43,990 nt of DNA from positions 1 through 43,990 of the forward strand of contig PXDC01000053.1 in NCBI GenBank assembly GCA_003565135.1, given 5' to 3'. The notes below the pieces were generated by a model. That model ran no database searches and was not told where the DNA came from. It worked only from the letters and a program-made list of their open reading frames with translations. The position numbers were made by a program, and so were the translations under genes. This DNA comes from Verrucomicrobiota bacterium. Lineage in GTDB: Bacteria > Verrucomicrobiota > Verrucomicrobiia > Opitutales > T3Sed10-336. Shown here piece after piece: positions 11,253 to 41,424 of this stretch (its first letter is position 1; each line of letters opens with the position of its first letter).

Positions 11253-11381
11253 ACGTCCCTTTCGCCCGATGCCACCCGCCGCGTCCGTCCGCCTTGTTCC
11301 CCTTTCCACCGCAACCGGGACCGGGTTTTCGGAACGCCCGCCCGGCCAAGCCTGACCACCCTCCGACCCCCGACACCGACG

Positions 11382-13091
11382 ATGCCAGAATCAAGCCGGG
11401 CCTCCGCCATCGACGCCCTCTACCGGATCAGCAGCCTGGCCGGAAAAACCGAAGAACCCCTGGAGGCGCTGCGACGGATCCTCCGGGAAATCGTCAGGAT
11501 CTTTGCCGCCAGCAGCGGATCGATCGCCCTCCTCAATCCCGACACCGGAAACCTCGAAATCGAGGTTTCCGAGGGCCTCCCCCACCACCCGGCCGACATC
11601 AGCCTGAAACCGGGTGAGGGCATCACCGGCTGGGTGGCGCTCCATGGCCGACCGCTCCTCATCCCGGACGTCCGGTCGGAACCACGCTACATTCAACTCC
11701 GGGAACCCGTGCGCTCGGAAATGGCCGTGCCCATGGAGGACCGGGGCCAGGTCATCGGCGTGGTCAACATCGACAGTGACACCGCGGACGCCTTCGGCGA
11801 CGAGGATCTCAAGCTGCTCCTTCTCATGACGGCGGAGGCCGGCAAGGTGGCCCGCAATCTCTGGCTTATCCAGCAGCTCAAGGTAAAAGCCAACCAGCTC
11901 GAATCCGTCATCAGCATCGGCCGCCGCCTCGTCTCGAAACTGGAACTCCAGGAGATCATCGACGGCATCACCCTCGAGTCGCGCAAGATCATCCGCTGCC
12001 GCCTTTGCGCGGTATTCCTGGCCCATGACGAGGCGGGGCTGCTCGAACTTTACTCGGTCAACGGGGATTCCGGGGCCTTCGCCGAACTGCCGCCCCTCTC
12101 GGTCGAAGAGAGCAGCATCGGCGTGGCCTTCCGCCGGCGAAAGCAGATTGAGGTCCTCGACCTGGTCAAAACCGAGGACAGCCTCGCCGTCCTGAAGGCG
12201 ATTCGGAGCGAGGGACTGGTTTCGCTTCTGGCGACCCCGATCCTTTACGAGGGCGAGGTCATCGGGGTTCTCAACGCCTACACCTCCGAGGCCCACCGGT
12301 TCAACGACGAGGAAAAACGCCTGTTCGCCGCCATGGCCAGTCTCGGCGCCGTCGCCATCCAGAACGCCCGCCTTTACGCCCGCGTCTTCCAGAGCGAGGA
12401 ACAGCTCCGCGTAAGCGAACGGCTGAACGCCCTGGGGCTGCTCGCGTCGGAGGTCGCCCACGAAATCCGCAACCCCCTGACCGTGATAAAACTCCTATTC
12501 CAATCCCTCGACCTGCAATTCGCCTCCACCGATCCCCGCGCCCGCGACCGCGCCATTATCGAGGAAAAGCTCGATCACCTCGAATCGATCGTCAGCCGGG
12601 TGCTCAACTTCGCCAAATCGTCCGAGGATGTTCACGCCCCGTGCGATCTCCGCGACATTCTCCGCGACACCCTTATCCTGGTCCGCCTGAAACTCGAACA
12701 GTGCCGGGTCCGGCACGAATATGAAGAACCGGGGGAACCGCTGGTGATCGAGGGCAACCGGGGACAACTCCAGCAGGTTGTTCTCAACCTTATTTTCAAC
12801 GCCCTTCAGTCCATGCCGGACGGCGGCGAACTCCGGCTCGAGCTGGTCCGGAAGCCGGATGCGGGAAACGGTCCGTGGGCGCATTTGACCGTGACCGATA
12901 CCGGTTGCGGCATCCCCGACACAATCCGCGAAGGGATTTTCGACTCGTTCCTGACCGGTCGAAACGAAGGAACCGGACTGGGCATGGCCATCGTCAAGCG
13001 AATCCTCGACGGTCACCACGGCCGGGTCGACGTCGTCCGATCCGATTCCACCGGAACCGCGATCCGGATCTCCCTCCCGTTGCGAAAATGA
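11382..13091 (+). CDS. Soluble sensor histidine kinase, GAF-GAF-HisKA-HATPase
   Basis: Two GAF domains (GEGITGWVA...SEMAVPM...IGVVNIDS; LLATPI...IGVLNAY), H-box AHEIRNPL, N-box NLIFNA, DTGCGI and GTGLG; no transmembrane segment. Confidence 0.92.
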   Translation: MPESSRASAIDALYRISSLAGKTEEPLEALRRILREIVRIFAASSGSIALLNPDTGNLEIEVSEGLPHHPADISLKPGEGITGWVALHGRPLLIPDVRSEPRYIQLREPVRSEMAVPMEDRGQVIGVVNIDSDTADAFGDEDLKLLLLMTAEAGKVARNLWLIQQLKVKANQLESVISIGRRLVSKLELQEIIDGITLESRKIIRCRLCAVFLAHDEAGLLELYSVNGDSGAFAELPPLSVEESSIGVAFRRRKQIEVLDLVKTEDSLAVLKAIRSEGLVSLLATPILYEGEVIGVLNAYTSEAHRFNDEEKRLFAAMASLGAVAIQNARLYARVFQSEEQLRVSERLNALGLLASEVAHEIRNPLTVIKLLFQSLDLQFASTDPRARDRAIIEEKLDHLESIVSRVLNFAKSSEDVHAPCDLRDILRDTLILVRLKLEQCRVRHEYEEPGEPLVIEGNRGQLQQVVLNLIFNALQSMPDGGELRLELVRKPDAGNGPWAHLTVTDTGCGIPDTIREGIFDSFLTGRNEGTGLGMAIVKRILDGHHGRVDVVRSDSTGTAIRISLPLRK

Positions 13092-16366: not shown

Positions 16367-18580
16367 TCAATCCTCCACGTTCACCCGGTAAAAGCGACGC
16401 GGATACGTGGATACCTCTTCCTCGATGAACTCGGCGACGCCGGTACCGTCCGCTTCAATCGTCGCGAGCGGTTCCCAGTTCACCAGGTCCCCGGAAACCT
16501 CCAGGGCGAAGGAGGCGTTGGCTTCCCCGGTTACCTGCACGCGGACATTGCCGTCCGGCGTGCGGCCCGCGGCCACCTGCGGCAGCCCCACAAAAGCCGG
16601 GGGTCCGACTTCGGTCACCTCAAAATTATCGAGGTGGATTTCGTACGGGCCCGTCGGGTAGTTGTCATCACCATCCCTCACCGGCATGAACGCCAAGTGT
16701 TCAATGGTCCCGCGATCGCCGTCCAGTTCCCCGTCGGCGCCGACCCCGGCAAACGCCGTGACCAACTCGTTGGGTATGTCGAAATAAAGGGTCGTCCATT
16801 GCCCGGCCCGGACCAGCCGCGCTTTCGGCGGAACGCTGTCCGGGTCGATATCCCCGCCAATCCATTCGATGCCGTTATGGATGTTTCCATCGCCGGTTCC
16901 TCCGTCTTCACCGATACCGTCGTTCGCGGGACTCAATCCCGGGGCGTGGGTTTCGCGGACCGCAAGGGTTACATAAACATCCTCGTTCGTATGGATATCG
17001 AAGCGCAGGAATTGCTCAAAGCTGATGATCGGATTCCCCAGAGTGGCGACATTGAAGGTCGTCAGGCGCAACCACGGGTTGGCGAGGTCCGCGGCGAAAC
17101 TGAAGTTTACCAGCAGTGACTGGGCCCCCCAGTTCCCTTCCGGAACATCGTCCGTTACCTGGGCCAGGTTGGGAGCCGCCACATTGCCGCTGGTCGATCC
17201 GGAGAAACTGGGTGCCCGGAACATCACCGTCCCGTTGGCCGCGGGCAGCACAATATCCTCGAAGTCGGCAAAACGCACCCCGGTCGGCGCGGGCGCGATG
17301 ACCAGGGCCGCGCCTTCGGTCTCGCGGCTGCCGTGAGTATTGCCGACCTCCACCGAGTACCGGCCGGCGTCGGCCGGAACCGCCTCCGCAAGGGTCAGGG
17401 TGGCGTCGGTGGCACCGGAGATGCGTCCCCCGTCGGTCACCTCCTCACCGTCGCGGAACCACTGGTAATCGAAGGGCTCCTCGCCCTCGACCTCGACGGA
17501 AAACACCGCGTTCTCACCTTCCTCCAACTGAACGGTCCCGGGAACCTCCAGGAAAATAAAGGGCTGCACATCGATTTCGGCACCGCGGCTCAGGGTGGTC
17601 TCGCTGCCGTCGGAAACCGCCACCCGGTAGAGCCCGGCATCGTCGAATTCGGTACCGGTAATCGTTAGGGTGTCGCTGGTGGCACCGGAGACGCGGGGAT
17701 CGGAATCGGCGAGCTCGACGTTGTCCTTCAACCACTGATACGTAAGGGTTCCGGAACCCTCCGCGACCAAGCTCAACTCAAACTCGAAACCGACCGCCAC
17801 TTCGCGGCCCTCCGGATGCTCCACGATATCGATGGCGCGCGCCGCACCCGGATCCTGCGCCAGGTAGACATCGTCGTAATTGGCCGGAAAGTTCGCGGTG
17901 GAAAACGGTCCACCGATATTGACGATCTCCATGGAACCGCCGTTCCACGGGATAGCGGTCCCGTTGGGATCGAGCTCGCCGTTGACATAGATATCGACCG
18001 AGTTTTCAAAGATGACAAACCGGAATTCCTGCCAGCCTTCACTCCGCTCGGCGGCGAGCTGGATCCATCCGGGTCCGGCGAAGACGCGCGCCTGGTAACG
18101 GGTGACGTCGAATTCACCCACCTGCGTCTCGATCCAAAAGGGAGCCGCGAAGATGTTGCCGAACTCGGCGCGCACTTCGGCGTAGTTGGCGCCGGCCACC
18201 AGCACCTCCTCTTCCGCATCCTCGTCGAACTCGGTCGTCATGTGGTCGTATACGCGAAACTGGAAAACAATCGGTTCGTCATCGGTGGGATTGAGATCCA
18301 TGATCTCCCACCAGCCGCGGTTCACTCCGCCGGACATCAGGACACTCTGGTTTGTGGTCCCGTCCGGGTCCTGAGTCACCAGTGGCGCCAGGTCGGGATC
18401 CTGATCGGCCGGAAACAGGGGCCAATCGCCGGTTTCCTGGTCGCCCATCTGGGCGGTCGATGTGTAGCTTTCAAAATCGATATCGATAAATATCTGCTGC
18501 GCGTAAGCGGAAACGGCCGCCACCGCGAAGCACAGAACCAGCAGAGCCGGCAGTTTCAGAACCGAGGATTTGGTATTCAT
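16367..18580 (-). CDS. Secreted acidic multidomain protein: lectin-like beta-sandwich, two Ig (I-set-like) domains, a second beta-sandwich and a putative C-terminal sorting domain
   Basis: Signal peptide ending AVSAYA. Two Ig repeats (LTYQWLKD...DAGLYRVAVS; FDYQWFRD...DAGRYSVEVGN). LamG-like WQEFRFVI..VDIYVNG. C-terminus LEVSGDLVNW...RRFYRV. Confidence 0.8.
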   Translation of the reverse strand: MNTKSSVLKLPALLVLCFAVAAVSAYAQQIFIDIDFESYTSTAQMGDQETGDWPLFPADQDPDLAPLVTQDPDGTTNQSVLMSGGVNRGWWEIMDLNPTDDEPIVFQFRVYDHMTTEFDEDAEEEVLVAGANYAEVRAEFGNIFAAPFWIETQVGEFDVTRYQARVFAGPGWIQLAAERSEGWQEFRFVIFENSVDIYVNGELDPNGTAIPWNGGSMEIVNIGGPFSTANFPANYDDVYLAQDPGAARAIDIVEHPEGREVAVGFEFELSLVAEGSGTLTYQWLKDNVELADSDPRVSGATSDTLTITGTEFDDAGLYRVAVSDGSETTLSRGAEIDVQPFIFLEVPGTVQLEEGENAVFSVEVEGEEPFDYQWFRDGEEVTDGGRISGATDATLTLAEAVPADAGRYSVEVGNTHGSRETEGAALVIAPAPTGVRFADFEDIVLPAANGTVMFRAPSFSGSTSGNVAAPNLAQVTDDVPEGNWGAQSLLVNFSFAADLANPWLRLTTFNVATLGNPIISFEQFLRFDIHTNEDVYVTLAVRETHAPGLSPANDGIGEDGGTGDGNIHNGIEWIGGDIDPDSVPPKARLVRAGQWTTLYFDIPNELVTAFAGVGADGELDGDRGTIEHLAFMPVRDGDDNYPTGPYEIHLDNFEVTEVGPPAFVGLPQVAAGRTPDGNVRVQVTGEANASFALEVSGDLVNWEPLATIEADGTGVAEFIEEEVSTYPRRFYRVNVED

Positions 18581-22383: not shown

Positions 22384-23091
22384 ATGGAGGTTACCAGCTA
22401 CGGTCAAAGCGATATCGGACGGGTGAGGGAGCGCAACGAGGACGCCTGCCTGCTCCAGGGGACCCGGTCGGTGTTCGCCGTGGCCGACGGGCTCGGGGGA
22501 TTGCCCGAGGGCCAACTCGCCAGCACCACCGCGCTCTCGATCCTGGAGCGGGAACTGGACAAACGCGGAATTCCCCGTGACTGGAAGCCGCTCTTCCACA
22601 AATTGAACGCGGAGATCGTGGTGCTGGGCCGGAGGCTCAGTCCCGAGACCGGAATCGGAACGACCCTGACCAGTGCGGCCCTGCGGGGCGACCGTCTGGA
22701 AATCACCCACGTCGGCGATTCGGCCCTCTACCGGTTCCGGCCCGAAGGAATGGAAAAACTCACCACCGACCACACCCTGGAGGAGGAAATCCGCAGCCGT
22801 CCCGACTACAACCCACTCATCCCCATTCCCCGCCGCCACAGTCACGTGCTGACCCGCTGCCTCGGGCAGATTGAAGACCTGGAAATCGACACCCGGGTCG
22901 AAACCGCCGTTCCCGGAGACCGTTTTATCCTTTGCACCGACGGTATCACCCTCGCCATTACACCCGAGGAAATCCACCCGCGGGTGCTCGCGGCGGCATC
23001 GCCGGAGGCCGTCGTGCGCGAATTGATCGCCTTGGCCAACGAGCGCGGCGGACGCGACAACGCCACGGCCGTGGCGATATTCGTCGATTAG
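22384..23091 (+). CDS. PP2C-family Ser/Thr protein phosphatase (PrpC/Stp1-like)
   Basis: SDIGRVRERNED, VADGLGG, GTTL, HVGDS, LTTDH, LCTDG and GGRDNAT. ATG 22384 is preferred over GTG 22342. Confidence 0.93.
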   Translation: MEVTSYGQSDIGRVRERNEDACLLQGTRSVFAVADGLGGLPEGQLASTTALSILERELDKRGIPRDWKPLFHKLNAEIVVLGRRLSPETGIGTTLTSAALRGDRLEITHVGDSALYRFRPEGMEKLTTDHTLEEEIRSRPDYNPLIPIPRRHSHVLTRCLGQIEDLEIDTRVETAVPGDRFILCTDGITLAITPEEIHPRVLAAASPEAVVRELIALANERGGRDNATAVAIFVD

Positions 23092-23141
23092 TCCCGGAGT
23101 TTTCCCTTGATCCCCCGACCGGTTCGCCGTGCAATCAAGCC

Positions 23142-24359
23142 ATGCGGAAATCCCTACTCTTTTCATTCGTCCCGGTCGTCCTGCTTCTGGCCCCGTCTCC
23201 GCTCCCCGGCGATGCCGTCACCGTTACCGTCGCCGCGGGAGACTGGGACCGGCACGGCACCCCGGTCACCTTTGAATTGCCCGAAGGAGCCCGCGACCAC
23301 CGCTCCCTGGAGGGGCCGGACGGTGAACGGATTCCCCTTCAGGTCGCCCCCGACGGAACCGCCGCGTTTATCCTGCCGCGACTCGCGGCCGGGAGCGACA
23401 TCACCTACCGCCTGGCCGGAACGACCCCCGCCCACGACGTGGCTCCATGGGTCGAAACGGCGAACGCCGACGGACGCGTACGGTTCTCACTTGCCGGTCG
23501 ACCCGCTCTTTACTACCAGGCGGAGGAACGCCCCTTTCCGCGCCCGGACATCAACCCGGTCCTGAAACGGGGCGGATTCCTCCATCCGGTCATCAGCCCC
23601 TCCGGCCGGACGGTCACCTCCAGTTACCCCCCGCGCCACACCCATCACCAGGGGATCTGGGCGCCGTGGACCCGGACCGAGTTCCAGGGGCGCAATCCCG
23701 ACTTCTGGAACATGCACGCCGAAACCGGCCGGGTCGAATTCGAGGAATTGGACCGGCACTGGAGCGGGCCCGTACACGGCGGTTTTCGATCCCGTCACCG
23801 CTTCGTGGACCTGTCCGCCGACGAACCGGTCGTCGCCTTGCGCGAGACCTGGGCGGTGCAACTCTACCAGACCGGCAACACCTCGGCACAACACCACCTG
23901 TTCGACCTCGAGATGGTGCAGAAGGCGGCTACCTCCGACCCGCTCAGACAAATCGAACACCACTACGGCGGCCTTGGCTTCCGGGGACACGACGACTGGA
24001 TGGGAGCGGAAAACACCCATTTTCTCACCTCGGAAGGCGTCACCGGCCGGCAGGAAGGCAACAACACACGAACGCGCTGGACTCATATCAGCGGCGACGT
24101 CGACGGCGAGCGGACCGGCATCGCCATCTTCTGCCACCCGGAAAATTTCCGATTTCCCCAGCCCGTGCGCCTCCACCCCCGCGAACCCTTCTTCTGTTAC
24201 GCGCCCTCCCAATTGGGAGACTGGGAAATCTCGCCCGGGGAACCCTATGTCGCGCGCTACCGGTTTGCGGTCATGGACGGGGAACCGGACCCGGCGGAAC
24301 TCGAACGCCTCTGGAACGACTACGCCCACCCGCCGGAAGTCCGGATCTCGACGCGGTGA
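23142..24359 (+). CDS. Exported DUF6807 ('PmoA family') protein, probably carbohydrate-related; not a methane monooxygenase
   Basis: Signal peptide MRKSLLFSFVPVVLLLA; family-type motifs GFLHPVISPSG, HTHHQGIW, DFW, YGGLGFRG and HPENFRFP. Confidence 0.75.
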   Translation: MRKSLLFSFVPVVLLLAPSPLPGDAVTVTVAAGDWDRHGTPVTFELPEGARDHRSLEGPDGERIPLQVAPDGTAAFILPRLAAGSDITYRLAGTTPAHDVAPWVETANADGRVRFSLAGRPALYYQAEERPFPRPDINPVLKRGGFLHPVISPSGRTVTSSYPPRHTHHQGIWAPWTRTEFQGRNPDFWNMHAETGRVEFEELDRHWSGPVHGGFRSRHRFVDLSADEPVVALRETWAVQLYQTGNTSAQHHLFDLEMVQKAATSDPLRQIEHHYGGLGFRGHDDWMGAENTHFLTSEGVTGRQEGNNTRTRWTHISGDVDGERTGIAIFCHPENFRFPQPVRLHPREPFFCYAPSQLGDWEISPGEPYVARYRFAVMDGEPDPAELERLWNDYAHPPEVRISTR

Positions 24360-25370: not shown

Positions 25371-26603
25371 ATGCAATCTTCAAAACGACGAGCCGTCATC
25401 ACCGGAATTGGAGTCATTGCCCCCAATGGTTCCGACCTCAATCTATTCTGGACCAGTTTGTGCGCCGGGCGAAGTGCCGCCGCCTTCATCAGCCGCATCG
25501 ACACCTCCGCCCTGCCGAGCAAAGTGGCCTGCCCCCTGCGGGGATTCAATCCCGCCGATTACCTCGCCCCGGCGACGGCCAATCACTACCCGCCCGCCAT
25601 CCAATACGCGATCGCCGCCGCCAGGAACGCCCTGGATGACGCCGCATTCGATTCCGCCTCCGTCGAACCGGACCGCCTCGCAATCGTGGCGGGAACCTCC
25701 CAGCAACTTCATCGCTCCGCCGAACTGCCGGCAAACGGCGATCGGCCCCGCGACACCCTTTCGATTCTCATCAACGGGCAGACCGGAAGCGGAGGCTCCG
25801 CCATCGCCCACGAGTTGGGATTAGCCGGGCACGCCCTCAGCTTATCCACCGGTGCTTCCACCGGCGTCGACACCCTGGCCCAGGCGCTCGCCCTGATCCG
25901 CGACGACGACGTCGATATCGCCCTGGCCGGAGCGGCGGAAACACCGATAACTCCCGGCTTCTGGGGTTTGTTCTGCGCGTCGAACGACATGAGTCGCGAG
26001 TGCGAGGAACCGGCGCGAGCGATGCGCCCTTTTGCGGCGAACCGGGACGGATTCATCCTCGGCGAGGGTGCGGCATTCCTGGTGGTCGAGGAGTTATCCT
26101 CCGCCCTTCGCCGGGGAGCTCCTATCTACGCCGAAATCGCCGGGTTCGGCCGAAGCTTCGACTGCAACGGATCAAACGGAACCGGCGGCACCGGGTTCCG
26201 CTCACTGGGAAAGGCCCTGCACCGCGCGGGGGTCGCCCCGCACGAAATCGATTATCTCAATGCCAACGGCACAGCGACCGCGGAAAACGATCGGGCGGAA
26301 TCCGTGGCGATCAAGCAAACATTCGGACAGCACGCGAAACGCCTCCAGGTGAGCGCGACCAAACCGGTCACCGGCCACTGGACCGGAGCGGCCGGACCCC
26401 TGGAAGCGGCGATCTGCGCACTGGCAATACGGCACCGCACCATTCCCCCCACCATCAACCTCACCGCTCCCGACAGCGAATGCGACCTCGACTACGTCCC
26501 GCTTGCGTGCCGCGGCTATCCGGTTAACGCCGCGGTCAGCCTGAACGCCGGCTTCGACGGCAGCAACACCTGCCTGGTATTCAAAAAATTCATCCATTTC
26601 TGA
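25371..26603 (+). CDS. FabF-like beta-ketoacyl-ACP synthase homolog, predicted catalytically inactive
   Basis: Colinear with FabF (RRAVITGIG, RPF..RDGFILGEGA, GAPIYAEI.GFG, TKPVTGH, IPPTINL, CDLDYVP). The catalytic Cys is Ala162 (STGAST) and the first His is Asn299 (NANGT). Confidence 0.88.
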   Translation: MQSSKRRAVITGIGVIAPNGSDLNLFWTSLCAGRSAAAFISRIDTSALPSKVACPLRGFNPADYLAPATANHYPPAIQYAIAAARNALDDAAFDSASVEPDRLAIVAGTSQQLHRSAELPANGDRPRDTLSILINGQTGSGGSAIAHELGLAGHALSLSTGASTGVDTLAQALALIRDDDVDIALAGAAETPITPGFWGLFCASNDMSRECEEPARAMRPFAANRDGFILGEGAAFLVVEELSSALRRGAPIYAEIAGFGRSFDCNGSNGTGGTGFRSLGKALHRAGVAPHEIDYLNANGTATAENDRAESVAIKQTFGQHAKRLQVSATKPVTGHWTGAAGPLEAAICALAIRHRTIPPTINLTAPDSECDLDYVPLACRGYPVNAAVSLNAGFDGSNTCLVFKKFIHF

Positions 26604-26620
26604 TCTCTCAAACTCCAAGG

Positions 26621-26647
26621 TTGCGCTTTGTGAATAAATTGTATAAT
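26621..26647 (+). promoter_or_regulatory. Possible sigma70 promoter upstream of the kinase-fadL-kinase genes
   Basis: TTGCGC (26621-26626), 15-nt spacer, perfect TATAAT (26642-26647) in an AT-rich gap; the spacer is shorter than optimal. Confidence 0.45.
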
Positions 26648-26677
26648 ACCAAACCCGGCTTCTTCTAAACGCCCGTA

Positions 26678-28693
26678 ATGTTCCATATTCTCGTCATAAC
26701 TGAGGACAACGGTTTTACCGATTCGCTTAAAGCGCTGCTCCCTGAAAACGAGTTTCGGCTCCACCCCCTCCCCTCCCCGAATAAAGCCCAATCGATTCTC
26801 AAGACCCCGCTTCCCGACGCCTGCCTCATCGACGCCGATCTGCCGAACCTGTCCGCGGTGAACGCCCTGGAGGAGGTGCGCCGCCATGCTTCCGCCATCG
26901 GCGTTTTTCTCTGCACCCGGGACACGAATCCCATCTGGGAAGAGGACGCCTATCTCAAGGGCGCCGATTTCATATTCCGCAAACCGCTCCGTTCCGCCCT
27001 GCTCCACCGGATTCTCACCCGGCACCTCCGCTCCCCCGCAAAAAAGCCGGCCTGGACCCATCGCCCCGAAACCGGACCGGCCCCGGCTCCCGGAACCTTT
27101 CGTCACGGCGGAACACTGCCCGGCTCGGCCCTGGAGATCATGCGGGATTTCTCCCGCATCCTCTCCTATTCGCTCGACCTCAAATCCTTCGTCCACCAGT
27201 TCATTCTCAAGCTTCGCGAAATCATCAGCGTGAACCGGGTCGCCATCCTGCTGCGAAAACCCGACCTGCCCCTCCCCGGCCTGTCCGCCGCCGAGAGGGA
27301 GGACGACGCGCTCGAATGCATCTGCTCGATCGGAATCGAAGCGGACCTTTTCCAATACTTCCAGATCAACCTCTCCAGTGGTATCGGCGGCATGGTCGCC
27401 CGCAGCGGACAAATCCTCAAGGCCGATTACGAAGCCAACCTGTTTTCGGACGAGAACTACGAGATCAACCGGGAATTCGAACTGCTCGGGTGCGAGGTGG
27501 CCATACCTATTGTCGATCGGGAGCGCTGCCTCGGGATCGCGCTGATCGGAGGCCGATTGACCGGAACGCGGTTTGCGGACGACGAACTGCAACTGCTCTT
27601 TCACCTCATGGAGGAGCTCGGGCTCGCCATCCGCAACAACTGGCTCCACGAGGAACTGGCCAGCCATCACGAACTGATTTCCGATGTCATCGCCCAGTTC
27701 AAAAGCGGTTGCCTGGTGATGTCGCCGGAATTATCCGTCCTCCACGCCAATCCCGCCCTGCTGGAATTCATGCAGAAGGCACCCGGCGATTCGGTGTCCT
27801 TCTCCGACCTGCCTCCCAGCATCGCCTGCCAGTTGTACGAGGTCGTCCAAAAAGGAGAAGACATTCCGCCCTTCATGTTCGACGGCTTTCCCGGCGACGA
27901 CCGGATATTCCGGATCTCCATATTTCCTCTGCAGACAGGACGGCTGGAGGCGGGATCGGCCACCATGCTGCTGATGGAGGACTTTACCCAGGTGGAAAAG
28001 GCCAAGAAGATCGAAGTCGAGGCCCAAAACGCCCGGACCGTCGCCCTCATCGCGGAACGTTTCGCCCACGAGATCCGCAATGCCCTCGTCCCCCTGAGCA
28101 CACACCACCAACTGCTGGAAACCGATTTTGACAAGGACGCCTTCCGGAACTCTCTGGACAAGACCATGGACCGCCAGATTCGCCGCATCTCGCGCTTCGC
28201 GGACCAGATGATGCTCCTTTCCCAGAGCCGAAACGGCACCGATCACGGCGGTTCCCTGCAGGAACTTCTCGAACAGGCATTCTCCGAAGCCCTCAATTTC
28301 TGCGGCCGGGACGGAACCCTCCAGTACGACCCGGAATTCGACGACTGCAAAATCCGCGGCGATCTATCGACCCTGAAACACGCCTGCATGGAGATCCTCC
28401 TCAACGCCCTGCAATCGGGCTCCGAGCAGGCGAACATCGTGGTCACGAACCGATTCGAAAACGACGACAAGGGACGGAATGTCGTCGCCATCGATTTTTT
28501 CGACCACGGGGGCGGTTTTTCCGAAGAAGCCGCGGAGGAGGCATTAAAGCCTTTTTTCACCACCCGCAACGTCGGTGTCGGCCTCGGGCTCACCGTGGCG
28601 GAAAAAATTCTGCGAGCCCACGGAGGTTCGCTTGAAATCACTCGAAACAAGACAAAGAAAAAACACGTCCGCGCGATCCTTCCCCTGGCATGA
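26678..28693 (+). CDS. Soluble hybrid histidine kinase, REC-GAF-PAS-HisKA-HATPase
   Basis: Atypical receiver (ILVITED, LIDADLP, CT, RKPL), GAF (VAIPIVDRERCLGIALIG...FADDELQLL), PAS-like (SGCLVMSPELSVLHANPA), H-box FAHEIRN, LLNALQ, DHGGGF, PFFTT and GVGLGL. Confidence 0.9.
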   Translation: MFHILVITEDNGFTDSLKALLPENEFRLHPLPSPNKAQSILKTPLPDACLIDADLPNLSAVNALEEVRRHASAIGVFLCTRDTNPIWEEDAYLKGADFIFRKPLRSALLHRILTRHLRSPAKKPAWTHRPETGPAPAPGTFRHGGTLPGSALEIMRDFSRILSYSLDLKSFVHQFILKLREIISVNRVAILLRKPDLPLPGLSAAEREDDALECICSIGIEADLFQYFQINLSSGIGGMVARSGQILKADYEANLFSDENYEINREFELLGCEVAIPIVDRERCLGIALIGGRLTGTRFADDELQLLFHLMEELGLAIRNNWLHEELASHHELISDVIAQFKSGCLVMSPELSVLHANPALLEFMQKAPGDSVSFSDLPPSIACQLYEVVQKGEDIPPFMFDGFPGDDRIFRISIFPLQTGRLEAGSATMLLMEDFTQVEKAKKIEVEAQNARTVALIAERFAHEIRNALVPLSTHHQLLETDFDKDAFRNSLDKTMDRQIRRISRFADQMMLLSQSRNGTDHGGSLQELLEQAFSEALNFCGRDGTLQYDPEFDDCKIRGDLSTLKHACMEILLNALQSGSEQANIVVTNRFENDDKGRNVVAIDFFDHGGGFSEEAAEEALKPFFTTRNVGVGLGLTVAEKILRAHGGSLEITRNKTKKKHVRAILPLA

Positions 28694-29919
28694 ATAAAAA
28701 TTTCCTTCGTTTGGTCACCGTCGCAACCCTAACCGTCATTCCCGTCGTGACCGCATCCGGCCTGGGCTTCCGCCTGGTGGACATGGACACACATGCGTCG
28801 GGGCGGGGAAACGCCTACGCAGCCACCGCCGACAGCCCCGCCGCCATCTATTATAACCCGGCCGGAATCACCCAGGTACACGTCCCTTCGATTCAGGCCG
28901 GCGTCTACGCCATCCATTTCGACGTCGATTACCGCAGCCGCCAGACCGGCGAACGAACGACCAACGACACCAGCATCCAGCCGGTCCCCAACGCCTATTT
29001 CACCCTTCCCATCGAAACCACCCCTCTCACCTTCGGCATCGGCGCTTACGCACCCTTCGGGCTGGTCAACGACTGGCCCGACGACACCGATTTCCGGACC
29101 GTGGCCACCCGGTCCACCCTGGAATTCCGGCAGATAACGCCGGTTATCGCCTGGGAAATCAACCCGCAGCTATCCATCGGTGGCGGCCTCACCATCAACG
29201 ATGCCCAGCTCGACCTGCGTCAGGCCCTCTTTCCCCCGGGCCATCCCCTGGCCAACGGCGACGAATTCCACTTCGACGGGCGCGACCAGTTTTTCGGGTA
29301 CACCCTCGGAGTGCGCTGGGCACCCGCCCCGCGTCACGCTTTCGGCCTCGCCTACCGAAGTTCATTGCGGTCCAACCTGAAAGGCACCGGCACCACCCGT
29401 CTGCCCGCTGCGGGAATCGATTCCCGGGAGGACGCCGAGCTCAATCTCCCCTTTCCCCGGACCGCCGTCATCGGGTATTCTTTTCGTCCCAGTGAGGCCT
29501 GGAATTTCGAGGCGAACCTCGACTGGACCGACTGGTCCGTCCTCGATTCGGTCACGATGCGGCTGGAGAACAGCGGAAACCAGGACCTCGAGTTCAACTG
29601 GGAGGAAAGTATCGTTTACAAGGCCGGGGTCACACGGTATTTTGAAAACAATTACCACCTTAGCGTCGGCTACATGTTCAGCGAGAATTCGGTCCCCAGC
29701 AGTTATTTCAATCCCGCCGTGCCGGACTCCGACCGGCACCTGGGGGCTCTGGGCGTCGGCTGGCGGGACGAACACCTCAGTTGGAGCCTGGGCTACCAGT
29801 TCGGCTACTCACCGACCCGTCGCGTCCGCGGCAGCGACGGGGGAGATGAGGGACCGGCCGACGGGAATTATCGAACGATCGTCAACGCGGTCTCGGCCTC
29901 CGTGGGAATAGCATTTTAG
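28690..29919 (+). CDS. FadL/OmpP1/TodX family outer-membrane channel for long-chain fatty acids or other hydrophobic compounds
   Basis: Signal peptide, then GLGFRL...SGRGNAYAATADSPAAIYYNPAG (NPA hatch motif), APFGL, WTDWS, PAVPDSDR and a terminal Phe. The start overlaps the kinase stop (ATGA). Confidence 0.92.
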   Translation: MNKNFLRLVTVATLTVIPVVTASGLGFRLVDMDTHASGRGNAYAATADSPAAIYYNPAGITQVHVPSIQAGVYAIHFDVDYRSRQTGERTTNDTSIQPVPNAYFTLPIETTPLTFGIGAYAPFGLVNDWPDDTDFRTVATRSTLEFRQITPVIAWEINPQLSIGGGLTINDAQLDLRQALFPPGHPLANGDEFHFDGRDQFFGYTLGVRWAPAPRHAFGLAYRSSLRSNLKGTGTTRLPAAGIDSREDAELNLPFPRTAVIGYSFRPSEAWNFEANLDWTDWSVLDSVTMRLENSGNQDLEFNWEESIVYKAGVTRYFENNYHLSVGYMFSENSVPSSYFNPAVPDSDRHLGALGVGWRDEHLSWSLGYQFGYSPTRRVRGSDGGDEGPADGNYRTIVNAVSASVGIAF

Positions 29920-29925
29920 TCCATT

Positions 29926-31149
29926 ATGACGGAATACACCAAGGAAACGCTCCTGATAGTCGACGACGAAGAGGGTCCCAGGGAATCGCTGAAGATCGTC
30001 TTCGAGGAGCGTTACCATGTACTCCTCGCCCGTTCCGGTGAAGAGGCGGTGACCGTTGCCCGCCAGACTCCGCCCCACACGGTCATCCTCGACATCCGTA
30101 TGGCGGGAATGTCGGGGATCGAAGTGCTCAAGTCCCTCAAAGAGATCGACCCCCACACCGAGGTCATCATGCTGACCGCCTACGAAACCCTGGAGACGGC
30201 GCGGCAAGCGCTTCGTTACGGCGCCCGGGATTACATTGGAAAACCGTTCAATGTAAAAGCCATGCGCACGGCGGTGGAAAGCGCGATGGAACACCGGCGA
30301 CTCTCCCTGAACATCGCCAGTTCGGTCGGGCAGCTCGATTCGCTTCAATCGGACCTGGAGAAGCTGATGATGCAGGAAGAGATGGCCCGCACGTCCTCAC
30401 AGATCTACGCCGGGGTCCTTCACGACATCAACAATCCGCTCACCATAATCAGGGGCTACGTGGACCTCCTGATGCACCGGCTGGCCGAAATGTCGCGGTT
30501 GACCGGAAACGACCTGGAGGAAGTCCGGGAAAACATGAATACGGTGGCCCAACAGGTTCGCGTCTGTTGCTCGATTTCGAACCGACACCTGGAGCTCATC
30601 CGCCGGGAATCCCCGGAGGGCCAACTGGTTTCGGTCAACCTGATCCTGCAGGACCTCCAGGACCTGATCAAGGTCCACCCGGCGGTCCGCGAATCCATGG
30701 TCGAAATCACCCCCCTGGAAGAGGACACATCGGTTTTTATTCACAGTTCCGAGCTCATGCAGATTCTGCTGAACCTCGTGACCAACTCCCTGCAAAATTC
30801 ACCCGCTTCCCGCAAGGTTACCGTACAGGCCGCCTTGCTGCCTTCGTTGCCGTCGGCCGCAAAATTCACCAACGGCCCGGAGGAAAGGATCATCAACGGC
30901 GAAATCCTGGACCCGAAGCGCTCCTATGTGGCGGTCACGATTCGCGACCAGGGAAAGGGGATACCCGCCGATATCATCGAAGAAGTGTTTGAACCGTATT
31001 TCACTACGAGGAAGGAGGACAACGGAACGGGGCTGGGACTGGCGATCGTCTCCCGGCTTGTGACGCGTAATCGCGGGGCCATCCACCTCCGGACAAAAGT
31101 AGGTGAAGGTTCCTCATTCACGGTATATCTTCCCCGGGAAAGCGAGTGA
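29926..31149 (+). CDS. Soluble hybrid histidine kinase, REC-HisKA-HATPase
   Basis: Canonical receiver (IVDDEE, ILDIRM, LTAY, KPF), H-box VLHDINNPL, NLVTNS, DQGKGI, EPYFTT and GTGLGL. Confidence 0.92.
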   Translation: MTEYTKETLLIVDDEEGPRESLKIVFEERYHVLLARSGEEAVTVARQTPPHTVILDIRMAGMSGIEVLKSLKEIDPHTEVIMLTAYETLETARQALRYGARDYIGKPFNVKAMRTAVESAMEHRRLSLNIASSVGQLDSLQSDLEKLMMQEEMARTSSQIYAGVLHDINNPLTIIRGYVDLLMHRLAEMSRLTGNDLEEVRENMNTVAQQVRVCCSISNRHLELIRRESPEGQLVSVNLILQDLQDLIKVHPAVRESMVEITPLEEDTSVFIHSSELMQILLNLVTNSLQNSPASRKVTVQAALLPSLPSAAKFTNGPEERIINGEILDPKRSYVAVTIRDQGKGIPADIIEEVFEPYFTTRKEDNGTGLGLAIVSRLVTRNRGAIHLRTKVGEGSSFTVYLPRESE

Positions 31150-31264
31150 GGCGCCCGCCGCCGCCCCGGCCCGGCCGGGTGATTTTCAGCAATTACTTGA
31201 AAATGAGGCGTTTTTAGCGCAAGCTGCACCATCACCGAACCCGTATGTAATAAAGGAGACTGTC

Positions 31265-31585
31265 ATGTTGGATATGTTTAAGAAAGCCGTATACGCCGGG
31301 ATCGGCGCCACTGTCACCACCAAGGAACACGTGCAGAAGATGCTCCACGAAATGGTGGAGCAGGGAAAAATCACCCGCCAGGAGGCCGAAAAAATGGCCG
31401 AAAAAATTGTCGAGGAAAGCCGCAAGGAGTTTGAGTCGACAACCAACGAAATCAACCGAACCCTGCGGGAATGGTGGCAGAAGGAGAAGCCGGTCAGTGA
31501 GGAGGAACTGCACAAACTCGAGAGCCGGGTAAAATCCCTCGAAGTCAAACTCGCCAACCTGACCCGCAAGGTAAAGGGGGAATAG
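31265..31585 (+). CDS. Phasin / PHA granule-associated (PhaF/PhaI-like) coiled-coil protein
   Basis: MLDMFKKAVYAGIGA...EMVEQGKITRQEA...EELHKLESRVKSLE; RBS AAGGAG at 31253-31258. Confidence 0.75.
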   Translation: MLDMFKKAVYAGIGATVTTKEHVQKMLHEMVEQGKITRQEAEKMAEKIVEESRKEFESTTNEINRTLREWWQKEKPVSEEELHKLESRVKSLEVKLANLTRKVKGE

Positions 31586-34730: not shown

Positions 34731-35501
34731 TCAACCTTTCGCCGCCGTGTAACGACGCGCCACGTCATCCCAATCAACGACGTTCATGAACGCGTCGACG
34801 TAGTCGCCGCGGCGGTTTTGATAGCGAAGGTAGTAGGCATGCTCCCAGACATCGATCGCGAGGAGAGGAACGACGCCATGAACGGTGATATCGTGATGTT
34901 TTTCCGCCTGCAGGACCACCAGTCGCCCGCTTAACGGCTCGTATCCGAGGATTCCCCAACCGCTGGCCTCGACCGCGCCGGAGGCCGCCTTGAACAGCCG
35001 CGCAAAATTCCCGAAGCTGCCGAAACTCTCGTCCACCGCCTCGGCCAGCTCGCCCGTCGGCTCGCCTCCACCGCCGGGCTTCATGTTGTTCCAGAAGAGC
35101 ACATGCAGCGAATGCCCGGACCCGTGAAACGCCAGTTCCCGCGTCCAGTGCTTGACCAGACCGGGATCCCCGTCGCCGGAGGCAATCGCATCGAGCTTTT
35201 CCAACGCGTTGTTGGCCCCGTTCACGTATCCATTGTGGTGAATGCTGTGATGCAGCTCCATGGTCTGGGCGTCGATGTACGGTTCCAGAGCATCGTAGGC
35301 GTAATCCAGGGGAGGAAGGACGAACTTGCCGTCTTTAAACCCGATTTCACTTTCCCTGGGCTCCCTCCGGCCGTGGTCGGCGGCGGCGGCAGTCGATGCG
35401 ATAAACGGGGCCGCGCCCAGGGCCGCCGCTCCCAGACCCAGTTTTTTGACGAGATCGCGGCGCGGAAGTTTTTGTGCGAGAAATTCGTTGGTGTCGCTCA
35501 T
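34731..35501 (-). CDS. Fe/Mn superoxide dismutase with a twin-arginine (Tat) signal peptide
   Basis: LPPLDYAYDALEPYID, HHSIHH, AFHGSGH and DVWEHAYY. N-terminal LPRRDLVKKLGLGAAALGAAPFIASTAAA. ATG 35501 is preceded by GGAG. Confidence 0.93.
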   Translation of the reverse strand: MSDTNEFLAQKLPRRDLVKKLGLGAAALGAAPFIASTAAAADHGRREPRESEIGFKDGKFVLPPLDYAYDALEPYIDAQTMELHHSIHHNGYVNGANNALEKLDAIASGDGDPGLVKHWTRELAFHGSGHSLHVLFWNNMKPGGGGEPTGELAEAVDESFGSFGNFARLFKAASGAVEASGWGILGYEPLSGRLVVLQAEKHHDITVHGVVPLLAIDVWEHAYYLRYQNRRGDYVDAFMNVVDWDDVARRYTAAKG

Positions 35502-35661
35502 GGTTTCTCCGGGTTTCGGGTTAATATTGCCTGATTCGCAAGCCCGATTAGGCCAAATCCACCGCCCGGATGCAACCTTGGAACCTGAAATCCGCCGCGA
35601 AAAAACAAAAACCGCGAACGGACCGGCCCCCGGCAACGCCCGCCGCCCGTCCATCACAGCC

Positions 35662-38968: not shown

Positions 38969-41424
38969 TTACTTTCGGATCCGGTAGTCGGTTTGGTTCG
39001 AAACAGCATCCTGAATCCCGGCGAATACCGTATTGACTTCCTCTTCGGTAAGCGTGCGGTCGACCGCACGGAAAACAAGGGAAAATGCGAGGCTCTTACT
39101 GCCTTCGGGAACGCCTTTGCCCTCGTAGAGGTCGAAAACCTCGACGTTTTCCAGCGCAAACTTATCCCCGGTGGCATGGCGTCCGAATGCTTCGAGTTTT
39201 CGCCGCACGGTTTCGGCCTGTTCGCGCGACGGAACCAGGAGGGAAAGATCGCGTTCGGCCGCGGGATAAACGCTAAAGGGCCGGAACGTTTTCCGCGGCG
39301 GCGTCCGGGAGAGCTGCTCCGGGAGCACCTCCAGGATACCCCCAACCACGGTACCCTCCAGCCCGTAGGCCTTCAACAGCGCCAGGTTCAACAACCCCAG
39401 GCGCGCCTCGGCACCCCTGGACAGATCCCCCAGTTTCGCGGAGTGGCCCTCCTGCCAGGCGGAATTCGTCAAAGGCACCGGACTGATTTCCTCTTCGCTC
39501 ATATCAAATCCGGCCATACGCGAGAGATTGAGCACCAGGTTCTTGGCCGTGAAGAAATCCGCCGGTTCACGCATCTTCCAGGCGCGTTCATCATCGGCAT
39601 TGAGAATGACAAACGCCAGGGTCACCACTTCCACCACGGCCCCGTCGAGCTCGCGAAAAGTCCGGCCCCGCTCGAAAAACCGCGTCCCCCCGGTTTTCCG
39701 GTGGCGGTTGAGCCGCAGCACGTCGAGCAGACCGGGAATGAGGGACCAGCGCAGGTGTGACTGGTCCGAGCTCAGGGGGTTGGACAAACGCAGCGAATCG
39801 ATGCCCGCATTGGAGAACCATTTCTTGAGTTCCTCACCGGAACGAAGCGAGTAGTTGAAGCACTCGTTGAAATACTGACCCACCAGGAAATCGGCAGCCA
39901 GGCGGTTGAAAACCACCTGGCGGTCATCGTCCGCGTCGAGCCCCCGGCTAACCACCGTCGCCTCGGGAATCTTGTCGGTGCCATGGATGCGCACCACCTC
40001 CTCCACCAGGTCGATGGGCGTCTCCAGGTCGGTCCGGAAACTGGGGATCCGCACCGTCCAATAAACTTCCATGTCACGATTTTCGTGCCGGGACACATCC
40101 AGTTCAAGCGATCCCAGAATCTCCTCGATGGTTCGGTCCGGAATATCAAATCCGCACCGCCGCCGCACAAAATCAAAATCGAGCGTGATCTCCTGTTCGA
40201 GCTCCGGCTCGTGCCCCACCTGGATCTCCGCGGTATCGATCGTCCCCCCGGCGATCTCCAGGATCAGATCCAAGGCCCGCTGGGCGGCATACTTTACCCC
40301 GCGGGGATCGACACCCCGTTCGAAGCGGTAGGAGCTGTCCGTAGAGAGGTTGAGGCGCCGCGACGTACGCCGGATAGACGAGGCGCGAAAATACGCCGCC
40401 TCAAGCACGATATCGGTGGTGCCGTCATCGACCTCGGCATCGATACTCCCCATGACACCGGCCACGACCAGCGGCTTCGCGCGTCCGCGATCACCATCAT
40501 CCGCTTGCCGAGTTCACGTTCACGGTCATCCAACGTGACGATCTTTTCCCCCTCCACGGCGTGCCGTATAACCAGCTTTTTCCCTTCGATCTTGGCGGCA
40601 TCGAAGGCGTGGAGGGGTTGTCCGAGTTCCAGCAGCACGTAATTGGTGATATCCACCACGTTGTTGACCGGCCTCAACCCGACGGCGGTCAGCGACCGCT
40701 GCAGCCACTCCGGGCTGGGAGCCAGCTTCACCCCGGTCACCGTATAGGCGAGATAGAGCGGGCAATCCTCCTCCGCCTCGACACTCACCGCATCCAGGAG
40801 CCGCCGGGAAGAAGGTTTCTCCGCGGGGGCAAGGGAATGAGTGAGCGTCGGGTAGCGCAGTTCCAGACCGAAATAAGCGGCCAGTTCGCGGGCGATGCCG
40901 AGGTGGCTCAGGCAATCCGGACGATTCGGCGTTACTTCGACATCGTAAACAACGTCCCCGCCCGGAAAAACCTGGTTGATCGGGGTGCCGATTTCCGGGC
41001 GCCCGTCGAGGATGAGAAGCCCTTCGGCATCGTCGTCGATACCGAGCTCGTTGCCGCTGCAGAGCATACCCTCCGACCGGACGCCGCGGAGTTTCGAGGC
41101 CTTGATCCTGAAGCCGCCCGGCAGGGTGGCTCCGGGAAGCGCCACCGGCACCCGGTCACCGACCCGGTAATTGTTCGCCCCGCACACGATCGTCGACGGT
41201 TCGGCCCCCGCTGCGACAGCCACGCGGCAGACGCTCAAACGATCGGCGTTGGGATGCGGTTCGGAAGCCAGCACCTCCCCGACCACCACCTCCGGCATAT
41301 CGGGCAATCCCGTCTTCTCCACGCCCTCGACCTCGAAACCGATCAGGGTCAACGCCTCCTCGATCGCCTCCGGCGAATGGTCGAGATCAACGTATTGCTG
41401 GAGCCACTGAGTACTGAGCTTCAT
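38969..41424 (-). CDS. pheT: Phenylalanine--tRNA ligase beta subunit, split by a 1-nt frameshift near 40478-40480
   Basis: ORF 40294..41424 has HPNADRL, VCGA, SEGMLCS and TPNRPDCLS. ORF 38969..40465 has AGVMG, SYRFERG, RTDL..PIDLVEE and the FDX-ACB C-terminus. Adding one base restores MVIADAxKPLVVAGVMG. Confidence 0.93.

Follow-up and report, generated by a model that had tools for sequence, protein, structure and literature searches.

A four-gene locus of a Verrucomicrobiota bacterium joins a ketosynthase pseudoenzyme to two soluble histidine kinases and may be the trimmed descendant of a larger module

Why is a homologue of the condensing enzyme FabF that lacks its catalytic cysteine kept beside two histidine kinases and a putative lipid channel? 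The question is raised by a locus at positions 25,371 to 31,149 of a 43,990-nt stretch of DNA from a Verrucomicrobiota bacterium (GenBank assembly GCA_003565135.1, contig PXDC01000053.1), the whole of which is called the window below. The window is contig C492 of the 538 contigs of its own genome, G000, an assembly that is 82% complete. The locus encodes a protein of the ketosynthase (KS) family, a first soluble histidine kinase (HK1), a channel protein of the FadL family and a second soluble histidine kinase (HK2); the KS of the window, a pseudoenzyme, is designated KS*. The answer that we favour, and to which we give an even chance, is that the four genes are the trimmed descendant of a larger verrucomicrobial module and form a regulatory phosphorelay in which the KS pseudoenzyme has been retained as a non-catalytic part.

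All four genes lie on the + strand. KS* (25371..26603; 410 aa) is a FabF-like protein, and its gene is followed by an AT-rich gap of 74 nt (26604..26677). HK1 (26678..28693; 671 aa) comprises a receiver-like domain, a GAF domain, a PAS-like linker, a HisKA domain with His464 and a HATPase domain; FadL (28690..29919; 409 aa) belongs to the FadL/OmpP1/TodX family of outer-membrane channels; and HK2 (29926..31149; 407 aa) has a canonical receiver, a HisKA and a HATPase domain. The HK1 stop codon and the FadL start codon overlap by 4 nt (ATGA), and the FadL stop codon is separated from the HK2 start codon by 6 nt only. A first-pass annotation, made from the sequence alone, had described four co-oriented genes with this overlap and this spacing, and each was recovered as an open reading frame (ORF) at the same position. 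It had also pointed out that genes for acyl carrier protein (ACP), for other steps of fatty acid metabolism and for a second KS were lacking. This was borne out: three Pfam scans of 10 ORFs each found no ACP, fab or fad gene among the window ORFs, a PP-binding search of the G000 genome gave six sites, none of them on the window contig, and KS* is the only KS found on that contig.

The two-domain KS fold is present in KS* (PF00109, 123 bits; PF02801, 98 bits). Its catalytic positions were read by alignment to B. subtilis FabF (4ls5), with which it shares 37% identity, and to nine verrucomicrobial FabFs. The catalytic cysteine is replaced by Ala162 (TGASTG, compared with ACA(T/S) in FabF), as had been seen in the first pass, and the first histidine is lost as well, Asn299 standing in its place; the second histidine, His336, and Lys331 are retained. 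The GFGG loop reads GFDG, and in a second, degraded loop C263, H267, P270 and G274 are changed and G272 is retained; both loops are presumed to have a gating role. KS* scored 345.4 bits against the fabF equivalog TIGR03150 (cut-off 493.75; the match spans residues 6-405) and 339.6 bits against PRK07314 (cut-off 387), so that it falls under both NCBIfam FabF cut-offs. The AlphaFold2 model of KS* had a pLDDT of 86.4 and a pTM of 0.89, with low confidence only at residues 112-138 and 267-273, and matched FabF structures with TM-scores of 0.86-0.90.

For HK1, Pfam reported Response_reg at 32.1 bits, a marginal match (cut-off 30.2), GAF at 26.6 bits, HisKA at a sub-threshold 20 bits and HATPase_c at 49.6 bits. 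No PAS model was reported by Pfam for the window HK1 and the PAS label is therefore tentative; its basis is an AtoS-like alignment over residues 304-670, together with weak sub-threshold PAS matches in paralogues. From the REC-GAF-PAS architecture first assigned to this kinase, the GAF domain stood, the receiver proved marginal and the PAS domain was not recovered. In an alignment of 11 HK1 orthologues, H464, N576 and the G-boxes are conserved; the receiver-like domain retains D52 and K102, and its acidic pair is not conserved. HK2 gave clear matches to Response_reg (94.6 bits), HisKA (30.6 bits) and HATPase_c (75.2 bits), contains no DNA-binding domain and has orthologues in 7 loci (44-79% identity). 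The maximal Kyte-Doolittle means over 19 residues were 1.38 for KS*, 1.17 for HK1 and 1.11 for HK2. Because none of the three has a hydrophobic segment, all are considered soluble, as had been proposed for the two kinases. FadL matched Toluene_X with 186.4 bits (gathering cut-off 29.7) and shows a signal-like hydrophobic stretch at residues 8-26, a YYNPAG stretch and a C-terminal Phe.

Among 40 relatives searched, KS orthologues (45-66% identity; about 40% for true FabF) were confined to the family of the window, where this KS clade occurs in 9 of 12 genomes. In all nine the KS gene adjoins histidine kinase genes. The locus was found in a full and a reduced type, and never in both forms in one genome (0 of the 9).

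The reduced type, found in the window and in the genomes G002, G004 and G011, has the order KS-HK1-(FadL)-HK2, after which come a phasin-like gene and, in convergent orientation, the gene for a pseudouridine synthase; KS is directly followed by HK1 in all 4 loci. FadL lies within the locus only in the window and in G002. The FadL orthologue of G004 and G011 (53-55% identity) is located elsewhere, with no module gene adjoining, and FadL is thus not constant in the reduced form. Three more KS of the reduced clade (P0006, P0014 and P0015) are known as database proteins; the reduced loci examined are the four named above.

In the same family, the full type occurs in G001 (two copies), G003, G007, G008 and G010. 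Here the KS stop codon overlaps or abuts the start of a gene for a kinase of about 735 aa, with 8-9 hydrophobic segments and the domains HisKA_7TM (PF16927), HisKA and HATPase, referred to below as the 7TM (seven-transmembrane) kinase. By synteny, its gene occupies the position of the 74-nt gap between KS* and HK1. KS is directly followed by the 7TM kinase in 11 loci (L027, L028, L029, L032-L038 and L116). Directly 5' of KS, 8 loci encode an ICMT/PEMT-family protein with a length of about 185 aa (PF04140, 63-73 bits); in the family it stands just 5' of KS in both copies of G001, in G003 and in G007, and the contig is cut at this point in G008 and G010. In the full-type loci of the family, HK1, FadL and HK2, in some cases with a second GAF kinase, lie either after or before these genes, the fullest order being ICMT-KS-7TM kinase-HK1-FadL-HK2. 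The full module is operon-like, its gene junctions being close or overlapping; it has three kinases and one canonical receiver only, that of HK2, and its KS passes one of the two NCBIfam FabF cut-offs.

Outside the family, comparison of the G007 KS with 401 genomes of the order found a clade member only in G127, which belongs to another family (57% identity). There the genes stand in the order ICMT-KS-7TM kinase-HK1-FadL-HK2, which is the window order plus the two missing genes. A double match in G142 was rejected, the two sequences being identical copies of FabF. Public contigs from genomes and metagenomes were scanned with KS alignments; the matches listed were mostly housekeeping FabF, and the clade members among them were L036-L039, L041 and L116-L118, from other verrucomicrobial metagenome-assembled genomes (MAGs) and from metagenomes. 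L036 reads KS-7TM kinase-HK1-FadL-HK2, L037 and L038 read KS-7TM kinase-HK1, L116 reads ICMT-KS-7TM kinase, and L039 and L041 read ICMT-KS up to the contig end; no further reduced-type locus was found among the matches listed. The HK1-FadL-HK2 order of the window recurs in G002, G127 and L036, with identities of 37-79%. When 401 genomes sampled from the phylum, most of them of high quality, were searched with a KS that has serine at the catalytic position (S-type) at E <= 1e-128, a threshold that would miss reduced-type KS, only G127 matched, and the module is therefore considered patchy. In the protein database at least 119 KS clusters have 45-65% identity, and the named ones carry verrucomicrobial labels.

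The genes flanking the module vary between loci (amylase, SNF2 helicase, RmuC, DUF4886, radical SAM), which indicates that the module is self-contained. No ACP gene was found in the window or in 15 module loci, and kinases adjoin the KS, in agreement with the proposal of the first-pass annotation that the locus is regulatory rather than metabolic. That proposal had been staked beforehand on a conserved linkage of KS, kinases and FadL, and linkage was found in 4 reduced and 11 full loci. The locus of the window is incomplete by comparison: relatives couple KS to the 7TM kinase and usually to ICMT, and the window has neither. Both genes are likewise missing from the loci of G002, G004 and G011. 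A tblastn search of G000 found no ICMT or 7TM-kinase orthologue; G002 and G004 (97% complete) have no second member of the KS clade, a result that does not extend to ICMT and 7TM-kinase genes, which were not directly searched for in these two genomes.

A KS tree of 45 sequences was constructed, and a spurious ORF ('FabF_L019') was excluded from it and from the motif comparisons. The KS of the module, KS* included, form a clade of 34 rows with 100/100 support, on a long branch that separates them from FabF by 0.75 changes per site. The seven reduced-type KS form a clade of their own (100/100), which is sister to the full-type group of the family (100/99), and this pair is nested in the group that contains G127 (99/99). 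Since the reduced subclade is nested inside the full type, the reduced form descends from a full-type ancestor.

Within the reduced subclade, the positions of the cysteine, the first histidine and the second histidine read C/H/H in P0014 and P0015, C/N/H in G004 and G011, A/H/H in P0006 and A/N/H in G000 and G002. On the tree, Cys was replaced by Ala once and His by Asn twice. All seven KS have lost F43, R72, D222, C263 and H267, which belong to the positions with a conservation of 90% or more across 118 full-type sequences and FabF; P270 and the GFGG loop are also changed. To judge from these residues, the subclade appears to have lost the gating-loop positions first, and Cys and His afterwards. 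The inactive KS is therefore not original to the module; it is a late and lineage-specific product of decay, the KS of relatives keeping Cys-His-His or Ser-His-His.

The products of all seven reduced-clade KS genes are full length (410-415 aa), even where identity to KS* is as low as 54-55%. Of the 113 columns that reach this degree of conservation, KS* keeps 95. The ratio of nonsynonymous to synonymous substitution (dN/dS) of KS was 0.22 between G000 and G002, where dS is near saturation, and 0.20 between G004 and G011 (dS 0.36). The neighbouring genes SurE, PP2C and RluD gave 0.19-0.23, the G004-G011 value of RluD resting on a wrong ORF, and the kinases and FadL gave 0.08-0.14. By these values KS* is a pseudoenzyme under purifying selection and not a pseudogene.

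Among the 119 best database relatives of KS*, Ser-His-His-Lys is found in 82 and Cys-His-His-Lys in 33, the remainder being reduced forms. The Ser-type relatives (among database proteins P0016-P0123) have both histidines and the lysine intact, and S-type KS genes occur in the same module (G003, G008, L039). With serine in 82 of 119 relatives, the normal enzyme of the module would often not be a textbook condensing enzyme. A literature search for natural ketosynthases with Ser for Cys gave nothing usable.

We infer that the locus is a cytoplasmic phosphorelay and not a pathway. HK1 would use its GAF/PAS part to sense a cue in the cytoplasm, probably one of lipid origin, and would phosphorylate the receiver of HK2, the sole canonical receiver of the locus; HK2 would then signal to an unlinked response regulator. 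KS* would be a non-catalytic accessory, which could for example hold an acyl chain or acyl-ACP, or dock to a kinase as an adaptor, and FadL, where present, would admit a hydrophobic molecule through the outer membrane. Prediction of a complex between residues 1-450 of HK1 and KS* returned 'no answer' (score 0.00, controls not run), which speaks neither for nor against binding. In the parent module, KS and the methyltransferase would make a hydrophobic, methylated product, this product would cross the outer membrane by way of FadL, and both the 7TM kinase and HK1 would feed the receiver of HK2, which would again address an unlinked regulator; such a module would both make and sense a methylated lipid signal. 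The lineage of the window appears to have lost the methyltransferase and the membrane receptor kinase, and to have kept a KS that is devoid of its condensation residues yet intact and constrained.

Several observations weigh against the derivation of a phosphorelay from a trimmed module. Most of the linked loci come from one family, so that they are kin and not independent, and the assemblies are MAGs. L118, a locus of the KS clade in which no kinase lies within 13 kb, is the sole exception to the linkage. No response regulator with an output (DNA-binding) domain is linked in any module locus. Because G000 is 82% complete, ICMT or the 7TM kinase could sit in unassembled DNA. The rate of evolution of the KS is roughly double that of the kinases, which a partial relaxation of constraint would lead one to expect, and FadL, missing from two of the four reduced loci, may not be essential to the relay.

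The same genes might serve lipid homeostasis or a specialised lipid, in which case the parent KS and the ICMT/PEMT protein would produce or alter a lipid of the membrane, the state of the membrane would be sensed by the 7TM kinase, and the window would keep the regulatory half, which reports lipid status. We regard this as a serious, if unlikely, explanation. Three kinases and a dedicated outer-membrane channel would be heavy control for one lipid-modifying step, no further lipid-synthesis gene or ACP occurs in any locus, and the full-type loci L036-L038 are without ICMT and yet keep KS, the 7TM kinase and HK1. On the other side, PF04191, a model for phospholipid methyltransferases, also recognises the ICMT-like protein (46-59 bits), a phasin-like gene lies 3' of the reduced locus, and the frequent serine of the closest relatives (82 of 119) would fit acyl transfer better than condensation. 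In addition, the condensing-enzyme and ICMT pairs BpsA/BpsB and DquA/DquB are described as making membrane lipids and not signals (PMC9827899).

KS* could also be a relic that has no function of its own and stands beside the kinases through shared ancestry only, the working unit being HK1-HK2 with or without FadL. The piecemeal loss of gating loops and of catalytic residues (two changes of His to Asn and one of Cys to Ala), the highest dN/dS of the operon and the scores of KS* under both FabF cut-offs, one of which the full-type KS passes, are what a relic would show; however, the seven full-length products despite their divergence, the 95 of 113 columns retained, a fold that is confidently predicted by modelling and a dN/dS of 0.20 at a dS of 0.36, which indicates purifying selection like that on the neighbouring housekeeping genes, make this improbable. 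We also strongly doubt that KS* works as the partner of an enzyme, either as a chain-length-factor-like, non-catalytic subunit in a heterodimer with another KS of the cell or through a residual activity, for example the decarboxylation of malonyl-ACP or the binding of acyl groups for transfer. G000 does contain four other full-length KS genes, but all of them are on other contigs, and three adjoin an ACP gene (on C159, where the true fabF is located, on C249 and on C287), whereas KS* has neither another KS nor an ACP next to it in the four reduced loci. Foldseek matches of the KS* model include the KS/chain-length-factor heterodimers 1tqy (TM-score 0.88) and 6kxd (0.85), and laboratory FabF mutants with Cys changed to Ala or Gln reportedly fold and bind ligands; the residue at the Cys position of KS* is Ala, not the Gln of chain-length factors, and its first His, its GFGG loop and its second gating loop are degraded as well.

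The reading of the locus as a trimmed phosphorelay can be carried further, to a proposal that we put forward as speculative and rather unlikely. The parent six-gene module might be a new lipid-based cell-cell signalling system of the Verrucomicrobiota, in which a FabF-derived synthase, usually with a serine nucleophile, and ICMT would make a methylated lipid that passes through FadL and is read by the 7TM kinase. KS* of the window lineage would then be an acyl-ligand receptor or adaptor for a soluble relay in cells that listen and no longer produce the signal. If so, the full forms would be producers and the reduced forms pure listeners of one lipid signal. The Verrucomicrobiota are abundant and little studied, and no signalling system of this composition was found in print for them. 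The module, in which a condensing-enzyme homologue is tied to three histidine kinases and a lipid channel, is open to testing. Its KS offer a natural series in which an enzyme appears to lose its chemistry stepwise under selection, and thereby a case for roles of ketosynthase-fold pseudoenzymes in signalling; they also bring to light a large clade of FabF relatives with Ser for the catalytic Cys.

The surroundings of the four genes were also analysed. Within the gap between KS* and HK1, the sequence TTGCGC-N15-TATAAT (26621-26647, + strand) is a promoter-like candidate identified by eye; the promoter scan did not list it because its 15-nt spacer is outside the 16-18 nt range of the scan. A GC-rich hairpin with a T-rich tail (31165..31179, + strand), 16 nt past the HK2 stop codon, is a possible operon end, and a weak one, since terminator-like sites in the region are not above the expectation from shuffled sequence (11 observed, 9.2 expected). 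The phasin-like gene (31266..31585, + strand) encodes a coiled-coil protein of 106 aa from the ATG at 31266, preceded by an AAGGAG Shine-Dalgarno sequence; the match to Phasin (PF05597, 26 bits) is under the cut-off and the NCBIfam matches are weak. It lies 3' of HK2 in all four reduced loci and in no full-type locus, and its identity between G000 and G002 (90%) exceeds the conservation of the adjoining kinases. Because it is conserved beside reduced-type loci only, it is probably a mere neighbour and not a member of the module.

Elsewhere in G000, the KS genes of C287 and C249 are closely related to each other (tree branches 0.09-0.10) and have about 30% identity to KS*; each has its own downstream ACP gene, and they are either real paralogues or strain duplicates in the assembly. 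Contig C501 (3.3 kb; L001:1-3327) carries a paralogous pair of a GAF-PAS kinase and a FadL, followed by a gene for a GntR-family regulator. This kinase has 35% identity to HK1 and no receiver was seen in it (the contig is cut), and this FadL has 40% identity to that of the window.

The remaining window genes are unrelated to the module: valS, glnD, another GAF kinase, a Na/Pi transporter, Ig-domain and Sel1-repeat proteins, PP2C, a DUF6807 protein (22932-24359, its frame supported by Pfam), SurE, the pseudouridine synthase, ABC permeases, superoxide dismutase, gatB, gatA, pheT and pheS. The glnD-like uridylyltransferase gene and the soluble kinase (GAF-GAF-HisKA-HATPase; 11382-13091) that follows it occupy 8334-13091. 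The only Pfam domains of an ORF of 640 aa at 3442-5364 (- strand) are of the HA ('helicase-associated') type, of which it has five (PF03457, 229 bits), and an ORF of 737 aa at 16367-18580 (- strand) contains immunoglobulin I-set/Ig_3 domains. The Fe/Mn superoxide dismutase ORF (34731-35657, - strand; 308 aa) has its SOD domains from residue 111 on, so that either an N-terminal extension of about 110 aa is present or the start codon is mis-called. The pheT gene (38969-41424, - strand) is broken up into two ORFs that overlap and differ in frame, one (40294-41424) with tRNA_bind and the first part of B3_4 and the other (38969-40465) with the remainder of B3_4, B5, the core and FDX-ACB, owing to a frameshift or an assembly error around 40300-40465.

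How does the locus compare with known systems? With FabF/KAS II, KS* shares the two-domain thiolase fold, the Lys and the second His. It differs in having Ala for Cys and Asn for the first His, in the degradation of both gating loops, in scores under the cut-offs, in its position in a separate clade and in the lack of ACP or fab neighbours. The four defining features that were tested for are not those of KS*, and by its sequence it is not a FabF.

Chain-length factors (KS-beta) have Gln at the Cys position and a role in biosynthesis, and their genes adjoin those of their partner KS-alpha and of an ACP. KS* resembles them as a KS fold without the catalytic Cys that is retained under selection for a non-catalytic role, but it has Ala162 and kinase neighbours, and neither the window nor the three other reduced loci offer it a partner KS or an ACP; it is not a chain-length factor. 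The window FadL has the strong Toluene_X match, signal-like N-terminus, NPA stretch and terminal Phe of the FadL/OmpP1/TodX channels. It differs from E. coli FadL in being far under the cut-off of the equivalog NF007988 (72.3 bits, cut-off 585) and in being translationally coupled to a kinase gene and not to fad genes.

Fusions of KS with signalling domains were found among database proteins (P0126, P0128, P0130-P0133, P0135 and P0138). In five of them PocR and GGDEF are joined to a KS with Cys-His-His intact, and in three PilZ is joined to a KS with Tyr at the position of the first His and with a degenerate GFGG loop. These fusions come from other clades and provide, by analogy, a hint that KS folds may be wired to signalling domains in other bacteria too. 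No KS-kinase fusion was seen among the longer proteins (0 of 20 matches at E <= 1e-80), which is weak evidence.

ICMT-like methyltransferases that pair with condensing enzymes to give methylated lipids are described for BpsA/BpsB and DquA/DquB (PMC9827899). A similar pairing of a condensing-enzyme homologue with ICMT is found directly 5' of kinases in 8 of the related loci. The Bps and Dqu enzymes differ in being type III polyketide synthases, not FabF-like, and in having no kinases or FadL adjoining, and the pair is absent from the window.

The phcBSRQ operon of Ralstonia (PMC8578825) encodes a methyltransferase that makes a fatty-acid-derived signal (methyl 3-hydroxymyristate/3-OH-PAME), a sensor kinase, and a soluble protein that combines a receiver with a kinase and has no DNA-binding domain. 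HK2 shares the receiver-plus-kinase layout of PhcR, and the parent module has, like phc, a methyltransferase and a membrane kinase. The phc operon has no KS, FadL or GAF kinase, whereas the window has neither methyltransferase nor membrane kinase; in addition the methyltransferase of the parent module is of the ICMT type and membrane-bound, and the likeness is one of layout only. The first-pass annotation knew of no described system of this composition. In agreement with it, no description of such a KS-kinase-FadL module was found in the literature searched for one, and the composition matches no system known to us; in the way it would act, the system is most like a two-component lipid-signal circuit.

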